Source: Hyphomicrobiales bacterium
GTDB lineage: Bacteria; Pseudomonadota; Alphaproteobacteria; Rhizobiales; CAJQND01
DNA length: 64,000 bases
Assembly (NCBI GenBank): GCA_028285595.1
Contig: JANQOW010000048.1
Location: forward strand, 25,495-89,494
Reading direction: 5' to 3'
Positions within the stretch are counted from its first letter, which is position 1; every line of letters begins with the position of its first letter. The translations under genes and the position numbers were made by a program. The notes below the pieces were generated by a model that did not search any database, was not told the DNA's origin, and saw nothing but the letters and a program-made list of their open reading frames with translations. Of this stretch, positions 1 through 57,531 are shown piece after piece.

Positions 1-1092
1 AAATACCTGTTGTTTGTGAACACCTGCTCGGAGAAGTGGGAGACGTCCGAGCGCGTGGGCGCGGAATTCGAGCATGTGCGGCCGTCCCCGCCGGCCTTGC
101 GGCTTTTTGATGCCGGCATGGGCGATGGCACCGTGCTGGTGCGGGTGATGCGCACCATGCATTGCCGCTATCCCAACATTCCCTTCTACATCTGCGGCAA
201 GGAGATCAGCCTGGAAGATGTCAGGCTCTGCCTGGAAAAGCTGCCCGACCGGCTCTACGAGCACCCCATGACCGTGTTCGTGGCCACCAATCTCTATTAC
301 TACCAGGCCCCCTGGCTCTCTCTGCAGGGCAGGGGCGACGATATGGCCATCAATTGGATCGTCTTGGAGCTGGAGGGCGAGCATTCCCACCAGTTCGAAG
401 AGCAGATCACCAATATGCAGCGCCAGATCGCCAGCTACTGGCAGGCCTCCGCCAGCGAGAAGACCGGCAATCCGGTCTACACCACGCCGACGGTTCTGGT
501 GATCTACCGGAAAGATCAGAAGTTCGTGCTCAACGATGTGATCCCCCACCGGGGCGACAAGCGGGCGGATTTCGACCTTGTGGTCGCCTCCCAGCCTTAC
601 CGGGCCCGGGTTGAGCCCAAATTCAAGGTGCGCAACGTGGTGGCGCCTCTGGCCAAGGCACTGAGTGTGGGCGGGCGCCTGATCGGGGTTCATTCCCACG
701 GCAACGATCCAGGCCTTGAGATCGTGCGTGAGGTGTGGCCGGACGAGAACCCGTTTCAGACCAACCGCCACATGCTGTGGGATGAGCTGAAGACGTCCTA
801 TCCGGCGATTGCCGCCACCTGTTCCCTGGAAGAGGCCGCCCACAACGAGGCCATCTTCAAGTACGGCATGCACACCCTGCCGAGCGAGATCTCCGCGCAG
901 CCCTCCGGCATCGGCACCTCCACTTTGCTGGCCGCCTGGAACGCTGCGGTCTATGTGGCCCAGATTGACGATGAGCGCCTGGAGGCGGCGATCGCGGATG
1001 GCAGCTACGTGGAAGCCACCCGCCGCAAGCTTGCAGAACATGGCGGACTGTGGTTCCAAAACGAGCTCTACACCATTGTGCGTCATACCTGA
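1..1092 (+). CDS. hypothetical protein, 5'-truncated by window edge; class I SAM-methyltransferase-like motifs
   Basis: Frame 1 is open from nt 1 to TGA 1090-1092. It has LFDAGMGDGT (GxGxG-type motif I), ICGKEIS (acidic residue after strand 2) and FDLVVASQPY (degenerate motif IV-like). I do not recognise the family with certainty. Confidence 0.55.
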   Translation, partial: KYLLFVNTCSEKWETSERVGAEFEHVRPSPPALRLFDAGMGDGTVLVRVMRTMHCRYPNIPFYICGKEISLEDVRLCLEKLPDRLYEHPMTVFVATNLYYYQAPWLSLQGRGDDMAINWIVLELEGEHSHQFEEQITNMQRQIASYWQASASEKTGNPVYTTPTVLVIYRKDQKFVLNDVIPHRGDKRADFDLVVASQPYRARVEPKFKVRNVVAPLAKALSVGGRLIGVHSHGNDPGLEIVREVWPDENPFQTNRHMLWDELKTSYPAIAATCSLEEAAHNEAIFKYGMHTLPSEISAQPSGIGTSTLLAAWNAAVYVAQIDDERLEAAIADGSYVEATRRKLAEHGGLWFQNELYTIVRHT

Positions 1093-12748: not shown

Positions 12749-13070
12749 GCACCGAAGTCTTGAGAAATTAAATCTGCCGTTTGTGCACCGTGGTTAGGAA
12801 TATATGAATCTCGGCCGATCGGTGTTCACTCCAATTTTAGGCAAATGCCGCCGGATCCCTCATATTTGAGGGTCAACAAATCCTTTCCTTAAAGGATTTG
12901 GTCAGATTTGCTTCAGCTCCCGTTAAGTCTACCGTTTAACGCGTTGTTTTCAGCCGCCCCGCATGATGAGGCCATGGCAACGAGGGGCGGCTAAGGCCAA
13001 GCCCAATAAGCCAGGGGACAAAGATGAAATCACCCAAAAAGGGTGAACAACAAAAGGCAGGGATTTGAAA

Positions 13071-13340
13071 ATGGCACGTATGGAAATCGTATCGGGAGCT
13101 GACATTGCAGACGCTGGATCTGTTTCTTCTGGAGCGCTCCTGCAGTTGGGGATCATGTATTCTTTGGGCCAGGAAGTGGAGCGTGACCTGATCGCAGCCC
13201 ACAAGTGGTTCAACCTGGCGGCTTTGCGCGGCAACGAATGCGCCAAACAGTATCGCCGTGATATTTCAAGCGAAATGAGCCCGTCTGAGATCGCCGAAGC
13301 ACAGCGCGAAGCCCGCGAGTGGCTCTACACCGTACACTAA
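13071..13340 (+). CDS. Sel1-repeat (TPR-like) small protein
   Basis: LGIMYSLGQEVERDLIAAHKWFNLAALRGN matches the Sel1 repeat pattern. ATG 13071 follows aaggcaggga. Confidence 0.7.
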   Translation: MARMEIVSGADIADAGSVSSGALLQLGIMYSLGQEVERDLIAAHKWFNLAALRGNECAKQYRRDISSEMSPSEIAEAQREAREWLYTVH

Positions 13341-13400
13341 GAGTTTAAAGCGAGACCCGAAAACGGGCTCGGTCCTGGAACACCAGGAGGCGTCAACAAG

Positions 13401-13439
13401 CATCCCGGATGGCGAAAGCTGTCCGGGATGTTTGCATTT
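13401..13439 (+). terminator. candidate intrinsic terminator
   Basis: Perfect 9-bp stem catcccgga / tccgggatg with a 12-nt loop, followed by tttgcattt. It lies between convergent genes. Confidence 0.5.
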
Positions 13440-18193: not shown

Positions 18194-18532
18194 CTAGTTC
18201 GCGATCCCCGACGGCACCACATAGGCACCCGATTCCGCGTCATACTCGGCAAAATAGTCGCTCACCTCAGGATGGCGCACGGGTTCGCCGGAGACATCGA
18301 TCAGCAGGTTCTGCTCCGACACATAAGCGATGTACTCGGTTTCCTCGTTCTCCGCGAGCAAATGATAGAACGGCTGGTCCCGCTCCGGGCGCACTTCTTC
18401 GGGGATCGACTCCCACCATTCCTCTGAATTGGAGAATGTTGGGTCAACGTCAAAGATCACCCCGCGAAATGGATAGACGCGGTGCTGAACAACCTGACCA
18501 ATGCGAAACTTCGCTGACCGGTTCACTTCCAT
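18194..18532 (-). CDS. hspQ: heat shock protein HspQ / hemimethylated-DNA-binding YccV family
   Basis: AKFRIGQVVQHRVYPFRGVIFDVDP...PFYHLL follows the YccV pattern. Start MEVNRS at 18532. Confidence 0.8.
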   Translation of the reverse strand: MEVNRSAKFRIGQVVQHRVYPFRGVIFDVDPTFSNSEEWWESIPEEVRPERDQPFYHLLAENEETEYIAYVSEQNLLIDVSGEPVRHPEVSDYFAEYDAESGAYVVPSGIAN

Positions 18533-18628
18533 GCCGAACTCCCGACCTGTCCCAAAACGCCCTCTCAAGACTACCCGTTAATGTGGCAAGCAATTGCGGC
18601 CAACGCAAGGGTGATGCGCAAGCTTGGT

Positions 18629-22953: not shown

Positions 22954-23520
22954 CTAGAATATTCGGTGCACAAAAGTGGTGCACACATATTTCGGGCCGC
23001 TTTTGGGCGGCGCGCCGCGGTGCCGGTAGGTCCAGCCCACGGGGAAAAACGCAATACGCCCGGCCACCGGCTTGATGCGCACGTCCTGATCTTCAAATTC
23101 CGTATGTCCGCCTCTGTCCACAGTGTTGAAGTACCACTGCGCGGCGAGAACGCGGGTCTGGTTTTGAGCGGAGTTATCATCGATGTGCCAGTGAAACTGG
23201 CCGCCGGGATCATACTTCTTCACCCTCAGCGGTTCGGCATGCAGATCTTTGTGGTCGGATCCTGCCAAAAACTTCACATCCGCCTGATAGCGTCCCAGGA
23301 ACTGGGAAAGTGAGCTCTGCAACGCGGAGATCATATCTCCCCAGCTGTCTTGCGGCAGCACGAGCTCGGTGGTCTGTTTTCCGGCCAGATCCAGCTCTGC
23401 CCCTGCGTTTCCGGAGACTTTTCCCTGTTCGCGCGACGGATCTGCATCAAAGCGCGCAATGATCTGTTCGCACACCGCCAGGTCCAGGGCCTCGTCGTAA
23501 AATTTGATGAACTTGGGCAC
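22954..23520 (-). CDS. 2OG-Fe(II) oxygenase superfamily protein
   Basis: HWHIDD (HxD) with a downstream GGHTEF His and RIAFFP. 188 aa. Confidence 0.65.
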   Translation of the reverse strand: MPKFIKFYDEALDLAVCEQIIARFDADPSREQGKVSGNAGAELDLAGKQTTELVLPQDSWGDMISALQSSLSQFLGRYQADVKFLAGSDHKDLHAEPLRVKKYDPGGQFHWHIDDNSAQNQTRVLAAQWYFNTVDRGGHTEFEDQDVRIKPVAGRIAFFPVGWTYRHRGAPPKSGPKYVCTTFVHRIF

Positions 23521-23878
23521 GGGGTTATGTGTTCCGATTCAATGAATTGATCCGATTCTCATAACTGAGAAGAGACAAGTCAAGCCAATCTCCAAAATGG
23601 AGGCAAAATCTTCACCAATTAGAGCGACTGTGCGCACAAGCTGAGGTTTACGGAAAAAATTATTTCATTTTTCAGCAACTTCAGGTAGGTGGAACTCGCG
23701 GTGTGAAGACCGCCGACCACCGCGCAAACAGTGGGAAGAAGCCGAGGGATCCTTATGCCGTTCTTATCTTGTTACGTTGGTCTCCATCTGCGAGCCCTGA
23801 CCAAGCGGTAGTTGCGCCGCCGGTGCTTTCCCGGTCACCCGCGCATTACCTCATGCCGTTCAGGTCACCCAACACTCC

Positions 23879-24757
23879 ATGACAACGCAACCTCAAACAC
23901 GTGAACGTCTCAATGATCACCGTAAGGGATTGTTGATAACGGGTATTGGTGCGTTTCTCATGACGTTCGACATTCCACTGGTGAGATTGGCGCATAGCGA
24001 CGAGTGGACAGTGGTCTACGTGCGCGGATTATGCGTGTTTTTTGTGATGCTGGGCTATTGGTTCTGGACCCACTACCGGCGCGGCAATCAGGTCCCGTTT
24101 ATCAACGGCATCGAAGGTTTTGCGGCTGCCGCCACCTTCGCGGTGACCAACATCTCGTTCATGACGGCCATCCACCACACAAGCGCCGCGAATGCGGTGT
24201 TCATTTTGGCGTTTGCGCCCCTGTTTGCGGCCATACTGTCCCGCATTTTTTTGGCAGAGCCTGTGCGGTCTCACACCTGGGTCGCGATTGCGGTTGCAAT
24301 TGTGGGGGTTTTGATTATTGCAACCTCAGGTTTAGGAACGGGACACCTGTTCGGAGACCTCATGGCGCTGATCGCGGCCACATCTTTGGCCTGTTCGCTC
24401 ACCATTATGCGATGGTCCGGCAAGGATATGACCTTTTCGCCCGGCTTCGGCAGTTTGCTGACGGCGATTGTGGCGGTGTGGTTTGCCGATCCGTTCTCGC
24501 TGAACCTCACGCAGGTAAGCTTGCTGGGCTTCAACAGTCTTCTCATCATGCCAATTTCGCTTGGCCTGTTGGCGCTGGGCACGCGCTATATTTCCGCGCC
24601 TGAAGTGGCCATGCTCATGTTGTTGGATTCCTTCCTTGCGCCCGTTTGGGTGTGGCTGGTCATCGGTGAGATCCCCACCACCCAAGGGCTGATCGGCGGC
24701 GCTATTGTGGTGTCTGCAATACTGGCCCACAGCTATGTACAAGCTAAGCGTGCATAA
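23879..24757 (+). CDS. DMT superfamily (EamA-like) transporter
   Basis: 292 aa with about 10 hydrophobic segments in a duplicated EamA-like arrangement. Confidence 0.8.
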   Translation: MTTQPQTRERLNDHRKGLLITGIGAFLMTFDIPLVRLAHSDEWTVVYVRGLCVFFVMLGYWFWTHYRRGNQVPFINGIEGFAAAATFAVTNISFMTAIHHTSAANAVFILAFAPLFAAILSRIFLAEPVRSHTWVAIAVAIVGVLIIATSGLGTGHLFGDLMALIAATSLACSLTIMRWSGKDMTFSPGFGSLLTAIVAVWFADPFSLNLTQVSLLGFNSLLIMPISLGLLALGTRYISAPEVAMLMLLDSFLAPVWVWLVIGEIPTTQGLIGGAIVVSAILAHSYVQAKRA

Positions 24758-24834
24758 TTTGACGCTGCATTTAGCCTGATTGTTTACCGAATGGTAATGG
24801 CGAAATGGGATCTTAGTCACATTATCCGGGCCAG

Positions 24835-25665
24835 TTGCAGATTGGTCTGACACGAGAAATGAGCTTGCTAAGTGCCGGGGGGGACTTGCGAAGAATGCAG
24901 AGCGCCCAACTGTGGATAAGCGACGGAAAGCTTATCGAGATCGATTCAGAAGTTATCGAGAGACGCGGTGTTGACGCATTGATGCGCGAGGACAGGCTGG
25001 TTCTCATCACGGTCAACGCCCGGGGCACCTCCATTCATTGGCATCTGGCCAGCGCCAGTTGGTCGTCTTTGTACTCGGTCATCTCGCACTTGCGGGTTTG
25101 CCCGCCGCCGTTTCAGCTCAATTTCTTCGTGGAAGCCTGGGCGAGCGAGCGTTTCGTGCGGGCCAAGGAGGCCGCCAAGCGCATTGATGAGTTGATCGGC
25201 AAAGCCGATGTGCGCCTCTCCAAGAAGGCCTATGTGTACGAGAAGGAGATGGACAAGCGGGCCATGCCACAGCTTTTGCAACTCGCTTATGATGAGCATG
25301 CGGCGCTGACGGACCACCGCGTCGACACGGTGTTTCATGAAGACAGCAACATGTTTTATCTGGAGCGGGCCGGAGAGAACTCTCTGCTCTCACGGATTAT
25401 GGGAGAGCATTGGACCGCGGAGTTTGCAGGCCGTGAAGAAATCCCCGATACGGATTTCGATTATGAGGTGATGTCTCACTACGAAAAGGTGCTGAGCGCC
25501 GATGTTCCGCGTTTCGACCATGTGTTTGCCACCATCACCCCGCCGGGCGGCTCGCCCATCTGGGCCTCATACTTGCGCCTGATCGTGCCGTCGACCTTCG
25601 AGGATGGCCGCGTGGGCGTGTCTTCGTTCTGCCAGACCAGTCCGGCAACGCCCAAGCTCATCTAG
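24835..25665 (+). CDS. hypothetical protein with PAS_5 (DUF1457)-like C-terminal half
   Basis: The C-terminal DFDYEVMSHYEKVLSADVPRFDHVFATI...YLRLIVP resembles the alphaproteobacterial PAS_5 pattern. The N-terminal ~130 aa are unrecognised and the start is uncertain. Confidence 0.5.
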   Translation: MQIGLTREMSLLSAGGDLRRMQSAQLWISDGKLIEIDSEVIERRGVDALMREDRLVLITVNARGTSIHWHLASASWSSLYSVISHLRVCPPPFQLNFFVEAWASERFVRAKEAAKRIDELIGKADVRLSKKAYVYEKEMDKRAMPQLLQLAYDEHAALTDHRVDTVFHEDSNMFYLERAGENSLLSRIMGEHWTAEFAGREEIPDTDFDYEVMSHYEKVLSADVPRFDHVFATITPPGGSPIWASYLRLIVPSTFEDGRVGVSSFCQTSPATPKLI

Positions 25666-25685
25666 AGCTCTAGCCGCCCTGAGGG

Positions 25686-26384
25686 TCAATCCTCGCGGTA
25701 CAAGGCCTCGTCAATAAGCACTTCAAGATCTGACCGGCGCGCCAACATCAGCCATTCGTTTTTGGACGCCCCTTCCGGCTCCCATTCCCAGCGATAGACG
25801 CTGGGTTCAATGATGGGATACCCCCAGCGCACCGAATGTCCGCGCCGAGAGAGATGCTCATACATGCAGCCCCAAATGGCGGAAGGATGCCATTTCAGAA
25901 GCGCCAGGATCATGCCGTAGCGCGAAAACAGGTCCGGCAGGCTTTCCCGGCGCCGGTCGGGATGCACCCAGGCTTCGCCAAAATAAACCACTTGGCCGTT
26001 CACCTGCTCGGTTTGTGAGCCCAGCGGCGGGCGCACGAACGTGGGCACCACCGGCTCGGAGCGCTTATGGTAGAGCCCGAGCATCCATGTCAGGCTCCAA
26101 TCGGCAAGATTGGTATCGATGTAGTCAACCCGATAGGCCTGCAGCATCACCGTTTCGTTCTGGTCATTCATGGCCCGCATCCAGAAGGCCTTATGCTCCC
26201 CGAACGCATTGATTTCTTCATCGAACATGGGGCTGACCAGATCGCCGCGGACGCGCATGCGTTCCCGCTTGAACTCAGCCATATCGCCGCTCATTTCCGT
26301 CGTCAGGCCGTGAGCGCGCGCACGTTCATCCAGGCGCAAGAGCGCTCTGGCTGCGCGCAACGGGTTATTTAATGCTTCGACCAC
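25686..26384 (-). CDS. hypothetical protein (Trp-rich, no family recognised)
   Basis: 232-aa ORF with 10 Trp, convergent with the previous gene. No motifs recognised. Confidence 0.55.
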   Translation of the reverse strand: MVEALNNPLRAARALLRLDERARAHGLTTEMSGDMAEFKRERMRVRGDLVSPMFDEEINAFGEHKAFWMRAMNDQNETVMLQAYRVDYIDTNLADWSLTWMLGLYHKRSEPVVPTFVRPPLGSQTEQVNGQVVYFGEAWVHPDRRRESLPDLFSRYGMILALLKWHPSAIWGCMYEHLSRRGHSVRWGYPIIEPSVYRWEWEPEGASKNEWLMLARRSDLEVLIDEALYRED

Positions 26385-26565
26385 TCAACCCCACCGCTTT
26401 AATTCCGTGCCATAATGGCACATTCGCCCTCCGGATTTGCGCCCAGATGAGGCAATATTTGCATCGTTGCAAGTCTGATGCTTGAAAACAGCGTCAGCTA
26501 GAGCCGTTGGTGCCACCATTTGGGTGCGTTGCCGGAGGCCGGTGAGGCCGCTAGAACTGCGGGTC

Positions 26566-26781
26566 ATGGTATTGCTGATTCGCAGAGTTTGGACGGCCCT
26601 GTTCCTGCTCATGATCTTTTGGAGCGTTCTGGCCGGGGCCCCGGAGATTTGGCCCGCCGACGCCAAGACCTATCTTGCTTTTCTCATTTGCGCCGTCTGG
26701 GCACCTGTGGCCTTCGTGCTCACCATGGCGCAGCAAGCCACAGGCAAGTCGGCGCCGTTCAAGGACGACAGAGGCGTCTAG
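26566..26781 (+). CDS. hypothetical small two-helix membrane protein
   Basis: MVLLIRRVWTALFLLMIFWSVLAG and YLAFLICAVWAPVAFVLTMA are hydrophobic segments. The track ORF begins at 26482, so the start is uncertain. Confidence 0.35.
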   Translation: MVLLIRRVWTALFLLMIFWSVLAGAPEIWPADAKTYLAFLICAVWAPVAFVLTMAQQATGKSAPFKDDRGV

Positions 26782-27015
26782 CTGTCGGAGGGGGCTTTTC
26801 TCATGACAGCGTATGGCAACTTATCACACTTGTTTCTGGGGGCCGTAAAACGGATGCAGATCAGGAGCTTGCGAGGCTTTACTGGGACTGCACACCCAGA
26901 AACGTCGCTAACCAGGAGGTGCCCGATCCACCATGCTGCCATCTGTCAGCCGTTTCGTGAGCGCAGTTGACGCACGCGCGCTGTAGAAAATCTGTGCCCG
27001 CCTGAAGAAACCGCG

Positions 27016-27030
27016 TTAACCTTTTGTTAA
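27016..27030 (-). promoter_or_regulatory. CtrA-type binding box TTAA-N7-TTAAC
   Basis: The plus strand reads ttaaccttttgttaa. The reverse complement reads TTAA-caaaagg-TTAAC, a full match to the Caulobacter CtrA consensus. Confidence 0.55.
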
Positions 27031-27060
27031 TCGTCGATGAACGCGTTTTGGACCTAACGA

Positions 27061-27080
27061 TTGTCCACACTTTTTCCACA
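27061..27080 (+). promoter_or_regulatory. two adjacent DnaA-box-like 9-mers
   Basis: ttgtccaca (27061-27069) and ttttccaca (27072-27080), each 8/9 against TTATCCACA. Confidence 0.4.
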
Positions 27081-27125
27081 AATCATCCAGATTACCGAAG
27101 CTCAGATAAGAGCAAATCATACGAT

Positions 27126-27134
27126 CCTGGATAA
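27126..27134 (-). promoter_or_regulatory. weaker inverted DnaA-box-like 9-mer
   Basis: cctggataa against TGTGGATAA (7/9). Confidence 0.25.
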
Positions 27135-27314
27135 ACGCAAAACGAACTCTGCTCGCCTCAAGCTGAAAATGCCGTTTTGTTAATGAAGCAGTTTAAGTGG
27201 TGAATCCTTTAAACCAATTTATTGGCTTTTAGAGACGTTTCTCAGGCGAATTGTTTAGCCAATCTCCTTCATACAGGGATTCGCCTTTGGAACATCAAGT
27301 GTTGTTTGGGTCAA

Positions 27315-27329
27315 TTAACCAACTGTTAA
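27315..27329 (+). promoter_or_regulatory. CtrA-type binding box TTAA-N7-TTAA
   Basis: ttaaccaactgttaa, located 78 nt upstream of ATG 27407. Confidence 0.5.
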
Positions 27330-27406
27330 GCTTTCGGTGGCTGGAAGCGGGAAAGGAGCGGTAAAACGACACCCGCAGATCAACCACAAGTGGTGAGTAG
27401 AAGGTC

Positions 27407-27718
27407 ATGTCGGATCTTTCCATTGGACTGCTGATCGAAAGCGAAAGGCAAAGGATCAAACGCCGTTGCATGGAGATTGACGATCAGTTCGACGCGCTGG
27501 GCGAGGAACGCCAGGCACTGCTGACGATCGCAGAAGCGCTGAATTCCCTGGAAAACCTCTACGCGGAAACGGGACAAACCGCAGACGCATCCCTGGCATT
27601 TACCACGGCCGGCGCTGCCCAGAGAACCACAGCGCCTGACTGGGGCGATGGTCACAGCATGGACCCGTCAGACCGGCTGAAACTGATCAACCGGATCTTG
27701 GAAACACCAACCGTCTGA
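27407..27718 (+). CDS. hypothetical coiled-coil protein
   Basis: 103-aa ORF. ATG is preceded by gagtagaaggtc. The N-terminal half is helical and charged. No family recognised. Confidence 0.5.
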   Translation: MSDLSIGLLIESERQRIKRRCMEIDDQFDALGEERQALLTIAEALNSLENLYAETGQTADASLAFTTAGAAQRTTAPDWGDGHSMDPSDRLKLINRILETPTV

Positions 27719-27832
27719 AGCTCTGCGCTTGCGGTTTTCATGGAATTGGCAAACTTCTGTCATTGTGCCGACATGCCGAAACGGCATGTGTGCCCGCATC
27801 AATCACAGTAAAGTTGCGGAAGGCCAGATCCA

Positions 27833-28021
27833 GTGACCCAGGACCGTTTAGAGACGTGCCGACCCTTCACACCCGTCGATCAAAGCGTGGAAGACATGCT
27901 CCACGATGCGCGCACGCTTGCCCAGCTCAAGGCGGAGGGCGTTCAGGTTGAAAATCTGACCGATCTTCTCACGGCCATCCGCACGCGCGTGCTGGCACAG
28001 CGCTGGCGCAGCGCAGCGTAG
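27833..28021 (+). CDS. hypothetical small protein
   Basis: 62-aa ORF with a GTG start. No family recognised. Confidence 0.35.
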   Translation: MTQDRLETCRPFTPVDQSVEDMLHDARTLAQLKAEGVQVENLTDLLTAIRTRVLAQRWRSAA

Positions 28022-28023
28022 GT

Positions 28024-28320
28024 CTACTTCTGACAGCCCAGGATCTTCGGTTTGCCGTTCACAAAAACACTCTTGCTCAAAATAGGCACACCCTCCGTGC
28101 ATCCGACGATCACAGGTTGACCGTTGATCATCACATTGGGCGAGATAATCGCGCCGGGAATATCGCCGGCGCGCTTGGCGGGCTGGCCCTCAATCAGCAC
28201 CGACCCGCTGCCCGTGGCGCCATCGGATGAGGCAGGCTCGTCAGCCGCCAGGGCAAGGTGAGGTGATGATGAGATAATGAGCGCTGCACACAGTAAAGTG
28301 GGGCGAGGGGACATGGGCAA
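28024..28320 (-). CDS. small secreted protein with three PAAR-like V.(I/V).G.P repeats
   Basis: Signal-like LLCAALIISSSPHLALA, then VLIEGQPAKRAGD, VMINGQPVIVGC and VFVNGKPKILGC. Confidence 0.5.
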   Translation of the reverse strand: MPMSPRPTLLCAALIISSSPHLALAADEPASSDGATGSGSVLIEGQPAKRAGDIPGAIISPNVMINGQPVIVGCTEGVPILSKSVFVNGKPKILGCQK

Positions 28321-28380
28321 AGCCTCCGCAAAGGACGTAACGTGCCCCGGTATGCCACAGATTTGCGGACCTTATAACGC

Positions 28381-28409
28381 AAAAAGGACCCAGCTTCAGC
28401 GCTGGGCCC
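28381..28409 (-). terminator. intrinsic terminator downstream of tRNA-Asn
   Basis: The minus strand reads gggcccagc-gctgaa-gctgggtcc followed by ttttt. Confidence 0.75.
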
Positions 28410-28420
28410 TTTTCGGTATC

Positions 28421-28496
28421 TGGCTCCCCGAGCAGGACTCGAACCTGCGACAAAGCGGTTAACAGCCGCTTGCTCTACCAACTGAGCTATCGGGGA
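28421..28496 (-). tRNA. tRNA-Asn (GUU)
   Basis: The reverse complement tccccgatagctcagttggtagagcaagcggctgttaaccgctttgtcgcaggttcgagtcctgctcggggagcca folds as a cloverleaf. The anticodon loop is cuGUUaa and CCA is encoded. Confidence 0.95.
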
Positions 28497-28636
28497 AAAC
28501 TCTTTGGTTCGGCGCTCCTTATATACGGCAAATTCAGAAATTCAAGCGAAGGATGTCACAGAGTCAAGAAATCTTGCCTCCATGAGGCATTCCCAGGCTT
28601 GCCCTCAGGGCTAATCCTTCCTAACTCAGGGCCGTC

Positions 28637-28867
28637 ATGAAAATCTCCTTATTTGGCCGCACCTTCACCCTACCTGCCAGCCGTCTCGCGCGGACCGTTA
28701 TCGGCGTCCTGCTTGTTCTGGGCGGTCTCTTGGGGTTTCTGCCAATCCTGGGGTTCTGGATGATCCCGCTTGGGCTGTTGGTCTTGTCGGTGGACTTTCC
28801 TGCCATCCGGAGACGCCGCCGCCGCCTGGCGGTGTGGTGGGCCAAACGTTCCGGCAACCGGGCTTAA
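28637..28867 (+). CDS. small membrane protein, PGPGW-like
   Basis: 76 aa. VLLVLGGLLGFLPILGFWMIPLGLLVLSVDFP followed by the basic RRRRRRL. Confidence 0.55.
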   Translation: MKISLFGRTFTLPASRLARTVIGVLLVLGGLLGFLPILGFWMIPLGLLVLSVDFPAIRRRRRRLAVWWAKRSGNRA

Positions 28868-28981
28868 AAAAAGCCGCAAACCGCTCCACATCAGACAGAA
28901 TGGGCGGGTTGCGCCAAACTGCGCAAAAGATGCAGTTGTCTGTACACTAACTTCCTGTTATCAGGCGCAGTCTGAAGGTGA

Positions 28982-29055
28982 GGCCACGTGGCGGAGTGGT
29001 GACGCAGCGGACTGCAAATCCGTATACCCCGGTTCGATTCCGGGCGTGGCCTCCA
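28982..29055 (+). tRNA. tRNA-Cys (GCA)
   Basis: ggccacgtggcggagtggtgacgcagcggactgcaaatccgtataccccggttcgattccgggcgtggcctcca. The acceptor stem ggccacg pairs with cgtggcc, the anticodon loop is cuGCAaa and CCA is encoded. Confidence 0.95.
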
Positions 29056-29142
29056 TCAAACCTTCAAACGCCCGCCACCTCTCTGCGGAGAGGACTGATC
29101 ATGTGGTGCGGCAACTTCACCTTTGTCCTGCAGGCGCCACCG

Positions 29143-44232: not shown

Positions 44233-47200
44233 ATGTTCGACGACGAGTTCACTGGCTCTGAAAAGGGCGATACCTTCAAACTTGGCAGCGGCCGGCAATC
44301 TGTGGAAGGCAGTTCAGGCCGGGACCGGATCATCTCTTACGGTGACGCAGGCGAGCCAGACCCGGCGCAAACGGATGGCGCGCAAGGGCGATACGGCCCA
44401 GCCTTGCCGGAAGGCTCCGGCGATGATGAGGTCTCAGGCGGGGCCGGCGGGGACATTTTCGAGTTCCGCGCGCTTCTCAATGCGACCGACGAGGTAAAAG
44501 CCCAGCACACCGGCAAGAACGGCGCTGTGAACTGGCGCGGCGTGGCCGGGGAGAATGATGATGTGCACGGCCATTGGGTTGAAGGGTTCGGCAACGACAC
44601 GGTTTTGGATTACTCCAAGGAGGATGGCGATCAAATCATCATCCGCGGCCACACCGTAGAGATTGCCAGCATCACCTACGGCGAGGATGCAGGCGGCAGT
44701 TACTCCCTGATCACTGTGATCAGTCAGCAGGGTGATGGCGGCGCCGGTGGGGCCAATACACAAACCGGTGCTCATGACGAGGACCCGTTGGGCACCGTCA
44801 AGGTCTATGGCGACAAGGTGACCGAAGCAGACGTGGACGTCCAGGCTGCGGGCGTGTTTGACGGGGTGGACCAATTGGCTGAGGCCAATAAGCTCGCCGA
44901 TTATAACGGCGGCTCCCAGCAATTCGGCAGCCGGATTGATGGCGAAACCATCGAAACGGCTCCTGCGGACATCGAAACCAAAGACACGATCACCATAGGA
45001 GAGGGCGCCCAAACGGTGATTGCCGGCGCCGGGCGGGATATCCTGGTGAGTTATTCCGATGATGGCGAGCCTGATCCGGCCCAGACCAACGGCGCCGACG
45101 GTCGGGTCAATCCTCCCGTTGCAGAGGGCGAAGCCAATGATGTGCTGATTGGCGGCCAAGGGGCCGACCTCTTCGCATTCAAACTCTTGCTGGATGCCAA
45201 GCAGGAGATCTTGGACAAACACACCCGCGACGATGGAACCGTAAACTGGCGCAAGGTGGCCGGTGAGAACGAGAATGTCCACGACCACTGGGTGCAGGGC
45301 ATCGGCGACGACATGATCAAGGATTTCTCCAATCAGGACGGGGACAAGATCCTGATCCGTGGCCACACAGTTGAGATACAAGCTATTGAGTATGGTGAGG
45401 ATGACGGCGGGGACTACTCTTTGATCATCCTACGTTCCCAGCAGGGCGACAATGGCGGCGCCCATGATGAAGATCCCCTCGGCTCCATCAAGGTTTATGG
45501 CGACAAGGTCACCGAAGATCAGATCAAGCTCCAGGCAGCCGGCGTGTTCGATGGTGCCGATAAGCTCGATCAGATCGAGCAGACACCAAACGCCCCGATT
45601 GCCGAACCTGAGGTCGCTTCCGAGCCGGCCGGGAACCTGGGCGGTCAGGAGTTCGAAGGTTCAAACCGCGGTAACACGATCGTTCTGGGCAGCGGACAGC
45701 AAACCGCAGACGGCAATGCCGGGTCAGACAGGATCATCTCCTATGGGGATGCCGGCGAGCCCGATCCAGCGCAAACCGAGGGCGCGGAGGGCCGGGTCAC
45801 ACCGCCAATACCCGATGGTTCCGCCAATGACATCCTGACAGGCGGCTCTGGCCGGGACATCTTTGAGTTCCGCGCGCTTTTGAACGCCAAAGCAGAGGTG
45901 ATTGCCGAGCACACCAACAAGAACGGATCCGTCAACTGGCGCAAGGTGGCCGGTGAGAATGATGATGTGCACAATCACTGGGTTCAGGGTTTCGGTGACG
46001 ATATCATCACCGACTACACCAAGGCCGATGGCGACAAGATCATCATCCGCGGTCACACGGTGGAAATTACCGACATTACCTATGGTGAAGACGAAGGGGG
46101 GTCTTACTCTCTCATCCGGGTGATCAGCCAGCAAGGCGACGGCGGTGCGGGCGGGGCCAACACAGCCACCGGAGCTCATGATGAGGATCCTTTGGGCTCT
46201 GTGAAGGTCTATGGTGACAAAGTCACCGAAAAGGACATCAAGGTGCAGGCCGCAGGCGTGTTCGACGGTGTCGATCAGTTGGTCCAGGCGGACAAACTTG
46301 CCGATTACAATGGCGGCAGTCAGTCGTTCGGAAGCCGGACGGATGGCGAGGAGATCGAAACCGCGCCCGACGCTCTGAAAACCAAGGATTACATCCGCTT
46401 AGGCGAAGGCGCTCAGACGGTTGATGCCGGGGCGGGCAATGACACCATTGTCATCTACTCCGACGCAGGCGAGCCTGATCCCGCTCAAACCGAAGGCGCA
46501 GCCGGCCGGGTTAATCCACCGGTGGATCCTTCGACGGTCAACGACGTGGTGAGCGGCGGCCAGGGCAGAGACATCTTTAAGTTCAACCTGCTGCTGGATG
46601 CCACCGATGAGGTCAAGGCTCAGCACACCCGATCCGACGGAAGCGTCAATTGGCGCGGCGTGGCCGGGGAAAATGACGATGTGCATTCCCACTGGGTGCA
46701 AGGCATCGGCCAGGATGTGATCAAGGATTTCTCCAACCAGGACGGCGACCAGATCATTGTGCGCGGTCACACTGTGGAGATCGCAGACATCACCTATGGG
46801 GAGGATGAAAACGGTGACTATTCCCTGATCATCTTGCGGTCCCAACAGGGCGATGGCGGTGCCGGCGGCGCGAACACGCAAACCGGAGCCCATGATGAGG
46901 ACCCGTTGGGCTCAATCATGGTCTATGGCGATAAGGTGACCGAAAACGACATTAAGGTGCAGGCCGCAGGCGTCTTTGACGGAGTCGACAAACTGGAGAC
47001 CATTACGTCGGACGTCCAGGGTCCTGTGACCGCAGGTGTCACGCCTTCATCGGGCTCCTACACCGGCACAGAGCGCAGTGATCTCATCATCGCGGGCAGC
47101 GGCCAGCAAACCGTCAACGGCGGTCGAGGGTCAGACAGGATCATCTCCTTTGGCGATGGGGGTGAACCTGATCCGGCCCAAACCGAGGGCTCCAAGGGCA

Positions 47201-48447
47201 GAGTTAACCCAGCCCTGGCGGTCGCGATCGCCAATGATGTGCTCACCGGCGGACTTGGCCGCGATACCTTTGAGTTCCGCGCTTTGCTGAATGCCAAAGA
47301 GGAGATTTTAGAGGAGTACACCCGCGAAGATGGCCGGGTGAACTGGCGTGGGGTGGCCGGTGAGAATGATGAGGTTCACCAGCACTGGGTTGAAGGTTGG
47401 GGTGATGACATCATCACAGACTATTCCCAGGCTGAGGGCGATAAGATCATCATCCGCGGTCACACGGTCGAGGTGGCCAGCATCGAATATGGTGCAGATG
47501 ACGGCGGTGAATTCTCTCTCATCACGGTGATCAGCCAACAGGGAGACGGCGGGGCCGGTGGCTTCAACACCGCAACCGGTGCGCATGACGAGGACCCGCT
47601 CGGCACCATCAAAGTCTATGGCGACAAAGTCACCGAAGCCGATCTTCAAGTGAAGGCAGCCAATATCTTCGACGGTATCGACCAGTTGGCCCAGGCAGAT
47701 ACGCTTGCGGCCTATAACGGCGGCACCCAGGAGTTCGGTAGCCGCGTTGACGGGACCGAGATCGTGACCTCCGAAGCATCGGCAAGCACCCGCGATCTGG
47801 TGAAGGTGGGCGAGGGCGCACAGACCGTCAACGCCGGGGCGGGCCGCGACACCATCGTCATCTACTCAGATGGCGGTGAGCCTGACCCCGCGCAGACCGA
47901 CGGTGCTGAAGGCCGGGTCACCCCGTCGGTTCCTCCAGCGTCCTCCGCTGATATTATCAGCGGCGGGCAGGGGCGTGACACGTTCCTCTTCAACCTGCTT
48001 CTGGATGCCAAACAGGAGATCTTGGACAAGCATACCCGAGACGATGGCAGTGTGAACTGGCGCCGGATCGCCGGGGAGAATGATGATGTGCACGACCATT
48101 GGGTGCGCGCCATCGGGAACGACGTGATCTTGGACTACTCAAATCAAGACCGCGACCAGATCATTCTCAGAGGTCATACGGTTGAGGTTGCCGCTATCGA
48201 GTATGGAGAAGATGACGGCGGCGATTATTCGCTGATCATTCTGCGCTCGCAGCAAGGCGACAATGGCGGTGCTCATGATGAGGACCCGCTTGGCTCTATC
48301 CGGGTTTACGGCGATCGGGTGGAAGAAGGCGACCTGAAGGTTCAGTCCCGCGTGTTCGACGGTGTCGATAAGCTCGACGGCATCATGAACACCGGATTGG
48401 CCGACGAACTCGTGCCGCTTGTCTTTACCGAAGACCTCATCGCCTAG
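44233..48447 (+). CDS. giant acidic repeat protein, 6 modules of ~234 aa, each with one RTX-like GGxGxD motif
   Basis: 1404-aa ORF with a gagaggga RBS. The GEPDPAQT codon run recurs at 44350, 45064, 45754, 46468, 47161 and 47875. Motifs include GGAGGDIFEF, GGQGADLFAF and GGSGRDIFEF. No N-terminal signal peptide. Confidence 0.85.
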   Translation: MFDDEFTGSEKGDTFKLGSGRQSVEGSSGRDRIISYGDAGEPDPAQTDGAQGRYGPALPEGSGDDEVSGGAGGDIFEFRALLNATDEVKAQHTGKNGAVNWRGVAGENDDVHGHWVEGFGNDTVLDYSKEDGDQIIIRGHTVEIASITYGEDAGGSYSLITVISQQGDGGAGGANTQTGAHDEDPLGTVKVYGDKVTEADVDVQAAGVFDGVDQLAEANKLADYNGGSQQFGSRIDGETIETAPADIETKDTITIGEGAQTVIAGAGRDILVSYSDDGEPDPAQTNGADGRVNPPVAEGEANDVLIGGQGADLFAFKLLLDAKQEILDKHTRDDGTVNWRKVAGENENVHDHWVQGIGDDMIKDFSNQDGDKILIRGHTVEIQAIEYGEDDGGDYSLIILRSQQGDNGGAHDEDPLGSIKVYGDKVTEDQIKLQAAGVFDGADKLDQIEQTPNAPIAEPEVASEPAGNLGGQEFEGSNRGNTIVLGSGQQTADGNAGSDRIISYGDAGEPDPAQTEGAEGRVTPPIPDGSANDILTGGSGRDIFEFRALLNAKAEVIAEHTNKNGSVNWRKVAGENDDVHNHWVQGFGDDIITDYTKADGDKIIIRGHTVEITDITYGEDEGGSYSLIRVISQQGDGGAGGANTATGAHDEDPLGSVKVYGDKVTEKDIKVQAAGVFDGVDQLVQADKLADYNGGSQSFGSRTDGEEIETAPDALKTKDYIRLGEGAQTVDAGAGNDTIVIYSDAGEPDPAQTEGAAGRVNPPVDPSTVNDVVSGGQGRDIFKFNLLLDATDEVKAQHTRSDGSVNWRGVAGENDDVHSHWVQGIGQDVIKDFSNQDGDQIIVRGHTVEIADITYGEDENGDYSLIILRSQQGDGGAGGANTQTGAHDEDPLGSIMVYGDKVTENDIKVQAAGVFDGVDKLETITSDVQGPVTAGVTPSSGSYTGTERSDLIIAGSGQQTVNGGRGSDRIISFGDGGEPDPAQTEGSKGRVNPALAVAIANDVLTGGLGRDTFEFRALLNAKEEILEEYTREDGRVNWRGVAGENDEVHQHWVEGWGDDIITDYSQAEGDKIIIRGHTVEVASIEYGADDGGEFSLITVISQQGDGGAGGFNTATGAHDEDPLGTIKVYGDKVTEADLQVKAANIFDGIDQLAQADTLAAYNGGTQEFGSRVDGTEIVTSEASASTRDLVKVGEGAQTVNAGAGRDTIVIYSDGGEPDPAQTDGAEGRVTPSVPPASSADIISGGQGRDTFLFNLLLDAKQEILDKHTRDDGSVNWRRIAGENDDVHDHWVRAIGNDVILDYSNQDRDQIILRGHTVEVAAIEYGEDDGGDYSLIILRSQQGDNGGAHDEDPLGSIRVYGDRVEEGDLKVQSRVFDGVDKLDGIMNTGLADELVPLVFTEDLIA

Positions 48448-56477: not shown

Positions 56478-57036
56478 TGGTCTTGGATCCCGTGTGTTCG
56501 GAGAGCTCAAGCTGCATAGAACCTATGGGCCAGGCAAAGATCAACACCCATGCCGGGGCGAGATGATTCGGAGCGTCTTGGTGAAGGAAGCATTGAGGAT
56601 ATGCGGGAAATTTTAATCTTCGGCGCAATGATTTTTTGAGAGTTCGTGCTCTAAGGGTAGCGCGGGATCGAGGCCATACCACCCTCACGCAGGGCGGACC
56701 GGGGCGCACAGAAAGAGCAGATCTTGTCACAGCAGCAATCAGAGATTGGGGGGCTGCACACCGCCATTCTTGATGCCCGCGCGCGGGCAAAGGAGCTTAA
56801 GTTACCCTTTGTCGTCTATCTGCTGGATTTGGCGATTGCGGCCCTCAAGCAGGAGTGCGCCGAGCGGTAATTTGAGACTTGTGTGCTCAAGAACCGATCG
56901 CCTAGGCCAAATTAGCTGCCGCTTACGTCAACGTTCGGCTTGCAAAATCGCGGCCTATTGTGTACCCCCGAAACTGCAGTTACCGGGGGGTAGGAAATGA
57001 TGCGGTCAAATTGTTTCGTCCTCCATCAGGGTAATT

Positions 57037-57447
57037 GTGACCAATATAGAAGAATTCTCCCGGCCATACCTCCAACTGTTATCGGAGAGCGATGTTGAAT
57101 CCGACGTGATCAGCCGTCACATTGTCGGCCTCATTCGCAATCTCTACATCAGCTATCCAGATCCCGTGCTTGTGCCATCCGAGCCTGGTGACGCAGAGCT
57201 TGGCCCCCTGAACGGCCGCATCGTCGGTTGGCTGACCGGCGAGCACTTCGTCAAGGTCGACCAAAACCGCATTTGGCTCACCTTCAGCGGGCGCGAGACG
57301 ATCCGGCGAACCGCTGAGACGGCGCCGTCCTATTCCGCCTTCTTTGAGGACGCTGGGAGTGTGCCTCCGGCCCATGCGATAGATCTCGTGCTGGCGCTCC
57401 TGAGAACCCATTTTGAGCGGGGTAGGGTCTCCGGTCATCGCTCATAG
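57037..57447 (+). CDS. hypothetical protein
   Basis: 136-aa ORF with a GTG start. No family recognised. Confidence 0.45.
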   Translation: MTNIEEFSRPYLQLLSESDVESDVISRHIVGLIRNLYISYPDPVLVPSEPGDAELGPLNGRIVGWLTGEHFVKVDQNRIWLTFSGRETIRRTAETAPSYSAFFEDAGSVPPAHAIDLVLALLRTHFERGRVSGHRS

Positions 57448-57531
57448 GGGGAACTGGCGCGGCACCTTCCAGGTGTGTTAAGGGGCTAACAGCAGCGTCC
57501 TGCTGTGGGCAGACAGTGATCTTGAGGAAAC

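Follow-up and report, generated by a model that had tools for sequence, protein, structure and literature searches.

The AT-rich spacer upstream of a small orphan gene in the 64-kb stretch of DNA analysed here (the window) is probably a conserved non-coding control region, wired into the cell cycle, of the gene pair encoding proteins of 103 and 62 aa, rather than a chromosomal origin of replication. It carries two CtrA boxes, a cluster of DnaA-box-like 9-mers between them, a palindrome, and a candidate promoter element (Table 1). Matches to the consensus sequences suggest that CtrA and DnaA are the proteins that bind here; where the promoters lie and how the regulation works, as described below, is putative as well.

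Table 1. Coordinates of the spacer, its sequence elements, and the adjacent genes in the window.
Feature	Position	Strand	Remarks
Small hydrophobic ORF, 71–79 aa	26566–26781	+	Ends at the left edge of the spacer; conserved upstream neighbour
AT-rich spacer	26782–27406		Between the hydrophobic ORF (ends 26781) and the 103-aa gene (starts 27407)
CtrA box 1	27016–27030		TTAACCTTTTGTTAA = GTTAAC-N5-GTTAA; minus strand TTAA-N7-TTAAC
Three direct DnaA-box-like 9-mers	27061–27091	+	TTGTCCACA 27061–69; TTTTCCACA 27072–80; TCATCCAGA 27083–91
Inverted weak DnaA-like elements	27103–27134	-	GATA(A/G)G core 27105–27110; TTATCCAGG (minus strand) 27126–27134
Imperfect palindrome	27191–27214		GTTTAAG-N-GAATC-CTTTAAAC; consensus TTTAArG-N6-8-ATCCTTTaAA
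CtrA box 2 with extension	27315–27334	+	TTAACCAACTGTTAA (27315–27329), then GCTTT
Candidate -10-like element	27358–27365	+	GCGGTAAA here; GCTATAA(C) in relatives; 28 nt downstream of box 2
103-aa orphan protein gene	27407–27718	+	Long predicted helix, then short conserved C-terminal helix
62-aa ORF	27833–28021	+	Conserved downstream partner of the 103-aa gene

The lowest-GC 300 bp of the window (27023–27322; 40% GC vs. 60%) lie in the spacer, and the G+C counts given for two of its 60-nt lines in the preliminary description, 23 and 19, were right on recounting. Within the spacer, AT content is highest at 27192–27231 (72.5% over 40 bp), and the best 40-bp stretches of the orthologous spacers are 63–70% AT. 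The spacer had also been called the longest gene-free stretch of the window, which is doubtful, as 56511–57531 (1021 bp) and 12749–13427 (679 bp) also lack convincing genes. Its non-coding status is borne out: no open frame is common to the eight orthologous spacers in any of the six frames, the search for a hidden ORF was negative, and no Rfam family matches the spacer. Searches of the spacer for iterons or other repeats were negative, a site scan found no IHF consensus in it, and a scan for promoters and terminators of the E. coli type gave no match. Matches of GatB assign the host to Hyphomicrobiales. In all relatives the spacer is long (620–960 bp), with synteny breaks on both sides. Upstream of it, the relatives carry EamA and hypothetical genes or a liv-type ABC operon, and in four lineages an operon of 6–7 genes reads into the spacer from the left. 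The position of the upstream neighbour is occupied by a called gene for 69–79 aa in L001, L005, L006, L007, L008, L012, and L013; the hydrophobic ORF of the window has no Pfam or NCBIfam match. The region at 23–29 kb of the window is GC-poor, contains many unannotated genes, and adjoins tRNA-Asn and tRNA-Cys genes.

The 103-aa protein has 15 homologue clusters at 74–87% identity, and a profile search with the family retrieved only a few remote small relatives with the common motif E(K/Q)QRI..RC.EID...AL..ER.AL. The AF2 model predicts a helix at residues 3–55 (pLDDT 77). The protein has no match in Pfam or NCBIfam, its AF2 model has no fold match in PDB by Foldseek, and tblastn found no match to the family in known plasmid or phage collections. 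The family is unannotated, and its occurrence is limited to a narrow clade of uncultured bacteria. The 62-aa ORF, also without a family match, is probably co-transcribed with the 103-aa gene; the gene is found 108–153 nt downstream of it in L001, L005–L011, and L014.

Conservation of the spacer was analysed in eight related lineages, whose 103-aa proteins are 73–87% identical to that of the window. The mean column identity of the spacer is 58%, and the invariant columns fall into box 1, the DnaA pair, the GATA core, the palindrome, box 2 with the following GCTTT, the GCTATAA element, and the ATG. The motifs stand out as conserved islands, at near-fixed distances from the start codon, while the non-coding DNA around them has diverged. 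The preliminary description had named a lack of conservation of the boxes in related genomes as grounds for rejecting its reading; the boxes proved to be conserved there.

The TTAA-N7-TTAA motif occurs twice in 64 kb, both times in the spacer and at the positions reported before, as re-reading of the sequence confirmed, while 0.09 sites are expected. In shuffled spacers the expectation is 0.013, and none of the 5000 shuffles reached two sites, in agreement with the earlier judgement that two exact matches are unlikely to arise by chance. Box 1 is perfect or has one mismatch in six of the eight lineages, at -382 to -397 from the ATG, and is degenerate in the remaining two (L010 and L013). Box 2 lies at -92 to -95 in all eight; it has the form TTAACCA-N4-TTAA, and in the alignment the TTAACCA and the CTTT of this region are invariant in every lineage. 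In the window, box 2 is upstream of the gene at 27407, as had been stated, but the gap to the ATG is 77 nt rather than 78. The distance between the two boxes is 299–302 bp across lineages and 290 bp in one. Many promoters of Hyphomicrobiales are under direct activation by CtrA (PMC4433202), and box 2 has what such promoters are recognised by, that is, TTAA-N7-TTAA or a TTAACCAT half-site in the promoter region. A further half-site, TTTTGTTAAT at 27175–84, repeats part of box 1; it was dropped as a conserved element, being common to L007 only.

Among the DnaA-box-like 9-mers, the preliminary description had listed TTGTCCACA and TTTTCCACA, 11 bp apart and matching the consensus at 8/9 positions each, and the inverted CCTGGATAA at 27126–34 (7/9); all three stand as described. 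To these we add a third phased box, TCATCCAGA (27083–91; 7/9), and the three direct boxes repeat with an 11-bp period. The spacer contains two boxes with at most one mismatch (0.11 expected, p about 0.005) and six with at most two (1.55 expected, p about 0.003). With two strong and two to four weak boxes next to two CtrA sites, this is the sole such cluster in the window. The pair is found in all eight lineages, the first box at -346 to -354 and its partner 11 bp downstream in seven of them; L007 differs in having a degenerate aligned first box, with the pair at -326/-315. CAC and ACA are invariant columns in the alignment of the pair, and a perfect 9/9 TTATCCACA occurs in L004, L006, L007, and L013, so that at least two near-consensus TTATCCACA boxes within about 100 bp are conserved in relatives. 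In the inverted core, G27105, T27107, and A27108 are invariant across the eight lineages; the minus-strand orthologous elements, at -311 to -312, are CTATCCACA in L010 (8/9) and CTATCTACA in L002 (7/9). The DnaA boxes are separated from box 2, downstream of them, by about 255 bp.

The conserved palindrome, about 100 bp from the DnaA boxes, falls in the 40-bp stretch where the AT content of the spacer peaks; a GANTC site is located within it at 27202. Its invariant columns in the eight-lineage alignment are 27193, 27195–96, 27206, 27209–10, and 27212–13. We rejected the reading of the palindrome as an RNA hairpin, because the changes in its arms are not compensatory in the alignment.

The -10-like GCTATAA is 28–29 nt downstream of box 2 across lineages, with G27358, C27359, and A27363 invariant and the consensus GGCTATAA in the alignment. 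Forms of the -10 element include CTATAT of the S. meliloti type and GCtANAWC of Caulobacter, and by its sequence 27358–27365 is a putative promoter element. If GCTATAA is the -10, the centre of box 2 is near -50; in CtrA-activated promoters the site is typically at -35 (PMC11264516). Promoters of the sigma-28, RpoH, and ECF types in the conserved islands were considered by eye and rejected for inconsistent spacing.

Upstream of three distant homologues (E-values 1e-9 to 1e-13), we found TTAACC-type sites, perfect in two cases. In L015, the perfect site, in TTAACCAACTATTAA, is at -82, with 29 nt to a TATACT hexamer, which matches the spacing between box 2 and the -10-like element; in L016, the perfect TTAACC-type site, in TTAACCGAATGTTAA, is at -115. 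L018 has a phased array of one-mismatch sites, with seven phased half-sites and three 21-bp direct repeats of GTTAA-type half-sites. DnaA boxes are absent upstream of the distant homologues, while the CtrA box is kept there; therefore, the promoter of the gene need not include the DnaA cluster. A contig of 9.7 kb carries one distant family member next to genes for ParDE and a ParA/VirC1-like ATPase, and on the plasmid-like contig L022 Pfam recognised only ParA/VirC1 and the coiled coil.

The preliminary description had likened the spacer to a Caulobacter-type origin, with a tightly cell-cycle-controlled promoter as the fallback. An origin of this type, relocated from the hemE cluster, would explain the CtrA boxes flanking phased DnaA boxes in the lowest-GC stretch of the window and the spacer kept long in all relatives between synteny breaks; nevertheless, we consider it very improbable. 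The polarity of the KOPS octamer GGGNAGGG marks replichores in Hyphomicrobiales (PMC2443382; bioRxiv 10.1101/2022.05.23.493018). All 11 copies in the window are on the plus strand, five of them inside minus-strand genes; as four copies to the left of the spacer (at 327, 5270, 20528, and 21490) and seven to the right have the same orientation, there is no replichore switch at the spacer. All four copies in the left 27 kb point toward the spacer and none away from it, which, at a leading-strand bias of 70–90%, makes an origin here 30- to 6000-fold less likely by our calculation. In the orthologous flanks the KOPS counts are weak, with about three plus and two minus independent upstream sites, several matches representing the same orthologous site. 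Raw GC skew has an apparent turn near 30 kb, and the cumulative skew after regression on gene strand is lowest at about 28 kb (r_left -0.005±0.010, r_right +0.024±0.008), which would favour an origin, as would the skew of about 0 in the upstream plus-strand operons of relatives. However, splitting the skew by codon position shows that the left/right difference comes from position 2, hence from the amino acid composition, and we therefore rejected the minimum as a replication signal; at position 1 the skew is positive to either side of the spacer, and the difference at position 3 (-0.003 left vs. +0.019 right) is not significant. Genes to the left of the spacer are evenly divided (12 plus, 12 minus), and at the spacer no switch of strand asymmetry is seen in GC skew, KOPS, or gene orientation. 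Nor does the spacer adjoin hemE or a COG1806/DUF299 gene, as origins of this type do (PMC1914354): Pfam scans of the 64 kb found no hemE, DUF299, dnaA, dnaN, parAB, or gidAB among the approximately 50 larger ORFs and the flanking genes. Further criteria for such origins (PMC1914354) are several DnaA boxes with CtrA and IHF sites in one intergenic region, unique among the large ones, and an AT content above the genome average with an AT-rich unwinding element. The spacer lacks an IHF consensus and probably a strong unwinding element, its best 40 bp being only 72.5% AT, and no 13-mer or DnaA-trio-like repeats were seen in it by eye. A leftward fork would meet the gatCAB genes, and the 7-gene operon of relatives, head-on. 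The origin of S. meliloti, from the same order, has no CtrA motifs (PMC4433202), and box 2 is accounted for as a family-wide promoter element. The origin is thus unsupported, and the fallback is favoured by the fixed position of box 2, the conserved -10-like element, and the recurrence of the site at distant homologues.

Two further readings were considered. The distal module might mainly be a non-origin locus of DnaA control, similar to datA/DARS or to the B. subtilis clusters, gated by CtrA at box 1, with the promoter being a separate element; at such a locus, away from the origin, DnaA would be titrated or remodelled. This is unlikely, even though it agrees with three phased boxes and an inverted one (perfect TTATCCACA in four lineages), with conservation of the spacing across about 400 bp in which the rest of the sequence has diverged, with the nearby AT-rich palindrome, with the distance of about 255 bp to the proximal promoter, and with distant homologues that keep a CtrA box and no DnaA boxes. 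The strong boxes number only two, the spacer has no IHF consensus, and the cluster always travels with the gene pair, as a promoter element also would. We know of no datA/DARS-type locus described in Alphaproteobacteria. Alternatively, the boxes could be operators of other proteins, for example, a regulator of the mobile-element or partition type on GTTAA or a response regulator on the TCCACA repeat, the whole unit being a domesticated plasmid-like remnant. The family member beside ParA/VirC1-like ATPase and ParDE genes, the L018 repeats, which resemble iterons or a centromere, the GC-poor surroundings next to two tRNA genes, and the binding of 11-bp direct repeats by OmpR-family regulators would fit this reading, to which we still give little credence. 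The invariant TTAACCA, followed by TTAA at 11 bp, is the consensus for CtrA; this half-site persists in homologues whose proteins have only remote, profile-level similarity, as one would expect of a conserved host factor rather than a co-evolving private regulator. In addition, the 9/9 TTATCCACA of four lineages is specific for DnaA, the unit in the window has no iterons, Rep gene, or integrase, and the family has no matches in known plasmids or phages.

Under the preferred reading, a control region of the gene pair, phosphorylated CtrA would bind box 2, abutting a weak -35 region, and help RNA polymerase to use the -10-like element. Transcription would start near 27372, giving a leader of about 35 nt, and the 103-aa and 62-aa proteins would be expressed only in that part of the cell cycle in which CtrA is active. 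The distal module (27016–27134), consisting of box 1 and, after 30 bp, three helically phased DnaA boxes and one or two inverted weak ones, may assemble a DnaA oligomer beside a CtrA dimer. It could gate a second, upstream promoter, activated by CtrA and repressed by DnaA, whose -10 would coincide with the first DnaA box; or a loop between the CtrA boxes could modulate the proximal promoter. Several observations sit less easily with a control region: the position of box 2 near -50 and not -35 if GCTATAA is the -10, the distance of about 255 bp from the DnaA boxes down to box 2, a long one if they belong to a simple promoter, the corrected skew minimum at about 28 kb, and the degenerate box 1 in two lineages. 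The tightly conserved spacing and the phasing of the DnaA boxes, together with the conserved AT-rich element nearby, resemble an ordinary operator less than they do an organised nucleoprotein site.

The spacer resembles CtrA-activated promoters, such as those of Caulobacter fliQ, ccrM, and pilA and S. meliloti pilA1, flaA, divJ, and mcpZ, in having TTAA-N7-TTAA with TTAACCA above a putative sigma-70-type -10, in the conserved position of the box in orthologues, and in its recurrence upstream of distant homologues. It differs in the position of the box relative to the putative -10 (PMC11264516), in the second CtrA box 300 bp upstream, and in the gene family served, which is unannotated and from a narrow uncultured clade. 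Like Cori of Caulobacter crescentus and the Cori-type origins predicted in other Alphaproteobacteria, it is enriched in AT, exceeds 400 bp, and has CtrA sites, DnaA boxes, GANTC sites, and, putatively, embedded promoters (PMC6393856, PMC1914354). Unlike Cori, it has no hemE or DUF299 neighbour among the ORFs scanned, no IHF site, and no switch of KOPS polarity; it has two CtrA sites instead of five, none over a DnaA box, and its DnaA boxes are near consensus, whereas those of Cori are weak W/G boxes. Clusters of DnaA boxes outside oriC include E. coli datA, DARS1/2, and the dnaA promoter, as well as the B. subtilis clusters and sda promoter; in Caulobacter, DnaA regulates the promoters of gcrA, hdaA, ftsZ, and podJ, and some promoters of this kind also have CtrA sites. 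The spacer is similar in having several close, oriented DnaA boxes in an intergenic region off the origin, beside a putatively regulated gene, and differs in the distance of these boxes from the promoter and in their fixed spacing relative to two CtrA sites and a palindrome. Phages of Alphaproteobacteria have intergenic regions with dense CtrA-type sites in promoters (PMC9437464). The arrays of phased GTTAA half-sites in L018 and L016, one of them in a plasmid-like context, are reminiscent of these regions; the unit in the window is chromosomal, has only two full sites plus DnaA boxes, and has no phage or plasmid family match.

Hence, CtrA boxes, DnaA boxes, and AT-rich DNA taken together are not diagnostic of an origin, and the cheap test of GGGNAGGG strand polarity can separate origin from non-origin readings even in a 64-kb fragment. 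It is rather improbable that box 1, the phased DnaA boxes, and the AT-rich palindrome form a CtrA-gated DnaA-control element outside the origin; if they do, it would be the first such element described in Alphaproteobacteria, and the adjacent orphan small proteins could, by analogy with the DnaA-controlled sda of Bacillus, be part of the same replication-checkpoint circuit. If the spacer is the control region of the gene pair, an unannotated family of small helical proteins would join the CtrA regulon in an uncultured clade of Hyphomicrobiales. The spacer would then be a compact natural non-origin site where DnaA and CtrA converge in a strictly conserved geometry, useful for studies of their interaction on DNA away from the origin.

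The spacer upstream of the gene for the 103-aa protein contains the 300 bp with the lowest GC in the window (27023-27322, 40% vs. 60%). The preliminary description of this region was correct in its coordinates and base counts on recount; its claim that no gene-free stretch is longer is open to doubt, as 56511-57531 and 12749-13427 are likewise without convincing genes. It had also held that two TTAA-N7-TTAA sites are unlikely to occur here by chance, and this was borne out. Both copies present in 64 kb, where 0.09 are expected, lie inside the spacer, and in shuffles of the spacer itself, which allow for its low GC, 0.013 are expected and two sites were reached in 0 of 5000. DnaA-box matches in the spacer number two vs. 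0.11 expected from shuffles at no more than one mismatch, and six vs. 1.55 at no more than two. Three direct DnaA-like boxes start at 27061, 27072, and 27083, giving an 11-bp period.

Orthologous loci were retrieved from eight distinct lineages. Their common core consists of a ~72-aa ORF, a spacer of 620-960 bp, the 103-aa gene and the 62-aa gene; the flanks on both sides vary from lineage to lineage. In the aligned last 430 nt of the spacer, mean column identity is 58% and gaps are nearly absent. The invariant columns are those of CtrA box 1, the DnaA pair (CAC and ACA cores), a GATA core (27105-27108; an inverted 8/9 DnaA box in the relative's locus L010), an imperfect palindrome TTTAArG-N6-8-ATCCTTTaAA (27191-27214), box 2 plus a GCTTT extension, a GCTATAA element, and the start codon. 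Counted from the ATG of the 103-aa gene, box 2 is at -92 to -95 in every lineage, and six of the eight have box 1 between -382 and -397. The DnaA pair begins between -346 and -354 in all lineages but L007 (-326/-315), and four lineages have a perfect TTATCCACA there. The orthologous regions share no reading frame in the spacer on either strand, and no Rfam family matches the spacer. Comparison of the sequences confirms and strengthens the original motif observation, as the boxes, whose lack of conservation in relatives had been named as grounds for refuting it, form invariant alignment columns; the conserved motifs lie in non-coding DNA and are under selection, as predicted binding sites for proteins.

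GANTC (CcrM-type) sites occur at 3.2 per kb in the spacer vs. 0.83 per kb across the window, and the first of the two (27202-27206), in the middle of the conserved palindrome, is retained by four of the eight lineages. The longer spacers of relatives carry GAAC-N7-GAAGGAA directly after the small upstream ORF, at a fixed position of ~-805 to -825 from the ATG. It is similar to the alphaproteobacterial LexA/SOS direct repeat GAAC-N7-GAAC and is absent from the window, whose spacer is shorter.

Features of the spacer, its surroundings and the loci of relatives (L, numbered loci; minus positions are counted from the ATG)
Feature	Location	Strand	Remark
Spacer	26782-27406		between small hydrophobic ORF 26566-26781 (+) and 103-aa ORF 27407-27718 (+)
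CtrA box 1	27016-27030
CtrA box 2	27315-27329
Third DnaA-like box TCATCCAGA	27083-27091		added to the boxes described before
Inverted DnaA-like box CCTGGATAA	27126-27134		described before; downstream of the three direct boxes
GANTC, n=2	27202-27206; 27278-27282
Octamer GGGNAGGG left of spacer, n=4	327, 5270, 20528, 21490	+
Octamer GGGNAGGG right of spacer, n=7	29388, 30115, 47965, 49282, 57420, 62625, 63537	+
tRNA-Asn	28421-28496	-
tRNA-Cys	28982-29055	+
GAAC-N7-GAAGGAA	L002 9176-9193; L004 9185-9202; L005 8166-8183; L007 3039-3056; L010 922-939
TTAACCAACTATTAA	L015, -82		TATACT 29 nt further on
TTAACCGAATGTTAA	L016/L022, -115		additional GTTAA half-sites
Three 21-bp direct repeats TGTTAACCTTTGTTAGGnCAT	L018, ~360-430		seven phased half-sites, upstream of distant homologue

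The alternative raised in the preliminary description, a cell-cycle-controlled promoter, is adopted here. GCTATAA lies 28-29 nt downstream of box 2 in the window's group and, by sequence, matches the alphaproteobacterial -10 element (CTATAT in S. meliloti, GCtANAWC in Caulobacter). Distant homologues of the 103-aa protein (L015, L016/L022, L018) are preceded by the same type of site as box 2. The protein downstream drifts so far that only remote, profile-level similarity is left, yet TTAACCA-N4-TTAA, which is the CtrA consensus, stays unchanged; this points to a conserved host factor. Box 2 and GCTATAA are accordingly taken as a putative CtrA-dependent promoter of the 103-aa/62-aa gene pair. 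If GCTATAA serves as the -10, the centre of box 2 is near -50, upstream of the -35 position usual for CtrA sites at CtrA-activated promoters (PMC11264516). Between the two genes, a hairpin GACATGCCG-AAA-CGGCATGTG (27770-27790), with no T-run after it, may act in processing or attenuation inside the presumed operon.

The distal elements (box 1 with the phased and the inverted DnaA boxes) are confined to the subfamily of the window, and no DnaA boxes were found upstream of the distant homologues in L015, L016/L022, and L018. Box 1 is 45 bp from the first DnaA box (56 bp in L007), and the distance between the CtrA boxes is 299-302 bp (290 bp in L007, about one helical turn less). Two mechanisms would fit this distal module. 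In one, CtrA would activate a further promoter that has its -10 at the first DnaA box and would thus be repressed by DnaA bound there. Alternatively, DnaA occupancy could tune the proximal promoter through a CtrA-CtrA loop aided by the central AT-rich palindrome. That the array is instead a CtrA-gated, non-origin DnaA-control site (datA-, DARS- or DnaA-box-cluster-like) seems unlikely.

The preliminary description had also proposed a Caulobacter-type origin in the spacer, and the only positive evidence listed for a chromosomal origin here comes from GC skew. Raw cumulative skew is flat to ~32 kb and rises thereafter; with the coding-strand effect removed, residual skew is -0.005±0.010 left and +0.024±0.008 right of the spacer, and the cumulative minimum at ~28 kb would, taken alone, favour an origin. 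We rejected this minimum as a replication signal, since the left/right difference stems from codon position 2 (-0.036 vs. +0.026) and therefore from amino-acid composition; at position 1 both sides have positive skew (+0.021 left, +0.028 right), and the difference at position 3 (-0.003 left, +0.019 right) is not significant. GC skew is thus treated as uninformative. The 1404-aa ORF at 44233-48447, with a weak RTX calcium-binding repeat as its sole family match, has an unusually negative third-position skew (-0.26).

The KOPS-type (FtsK-orienting) octamer is dense in the window (1 per 5.8 kb), and all 11 copies are on the plus strand; at a chance expectation of ~7.4 per strand, the minus strand, with zero, has been emptied. 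By this polarity the whole window lies on one replichore, with plus as the leading strand. Five of the 11 copies are within minus-strand genes, so the polarity is not a coding-strand effect. Polarity of this motif served to confirm the Azorhizobium origin (PMC2443382) and tracks replichores in S. meliloti (bioRxiv 10.1101/2022.05.23.493018). If the origin were at 27.1 kb, each of the four copies to its left would be wrongly oriented; for a leading-strand bias between 70 and 90%, we calculate that this is 30- to 6000-fold less probable than one replichore throughout. A scan of the ~50 largest ORFs turned up no hemE/DUF299 cluster and no dnaA, dnaN, parAB, or gidAB; a place beside hemE and/or the DUF299 gene is the first criterion of PMC1914354 for such an origin. 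Gene direction also stands against an origin: transcription runs from the left toward the spacer in gatCAB of the window and in a 6-7-gene ABC/amidase operon of four relatives. No IHF consensus was found in the spacer, and its most AT-rich 40 bp are only 72.5% AT. We reject the origin interpretation, which we regard as highly improbable. A gene for a YccV/HspQ-like hemimethylated-DNA-binding protein lies 9 kb from the spacer (18194-18577). This family was first noted in E. coli for binding hemimethylated oriC DNA; its nearness is probably coincidental.

GatB shares 74-79% identity with its counterparts in Hyphomicrobiales MAGs, Devosiaceae and Stappiaceae, which places the window in an uncultured Hyphomicrobiales lineage. 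The 103-aa protein has 15 homologue clusters (74-87% identity), all from metagenomes or MAGs, and among 1.84 billion representative proteins a profile search gave only a few remote small relatives, with the common motif E(K/Q)QRI..RC.EID...AL..ER.AL. Its AlphaFold model (mean pLDDT 77) has a long helix spanning residues 3-55 plus two short helices; no match was found in Pfam, NCBIfam, PDB Foldseek, or plasmid and phage collections.

A further, unlikely reading is that the sites serve regulators of a mobile element rather than CtrA and DnaA, given the GC-poor, tRNA-adjacent setting of the gene pair and one distant homologue in a plasmid-like context. The latter is on a 9.7-kb contig (L022 1-9678, CAJHYS010000071.1) beside a ParA/VirC1-like ATPase, a small partner ORF, ParD/ParE, a 436-aa coiled-coil protein, and a 792-aa domainless protein. 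Against this reading stand the exact matches to the consensus and the fact that no iterons, Rep or integrase were found. L022 and the orthologous locus L004 come from the same assembly. Upstream of distant homologues, phased GTTA(A/G) half-sites form arrays (L018 ~360-430; L016/L022 ~2400-2470) similar to the CtrA-site-dense intergenic regions of alphaproteobacterial phages (PMC9437464). GC is lowered to 0.52-0.58 over 23000-29100, where ORFs 24835-25665 and 25686-26384 have no family matches and a 98-aa ORF (28024-28320, minus strand) has a weak PAAR-motif match; the tRNA-Asn/tRNA-Cys pair is also downstream of the gene unit in L006 and L007.

The region is of moderate interest on two counts: a CtrA/DnaA geometry that is conserved away from an origin, and a putatively CtrA-linked orphan protein family.
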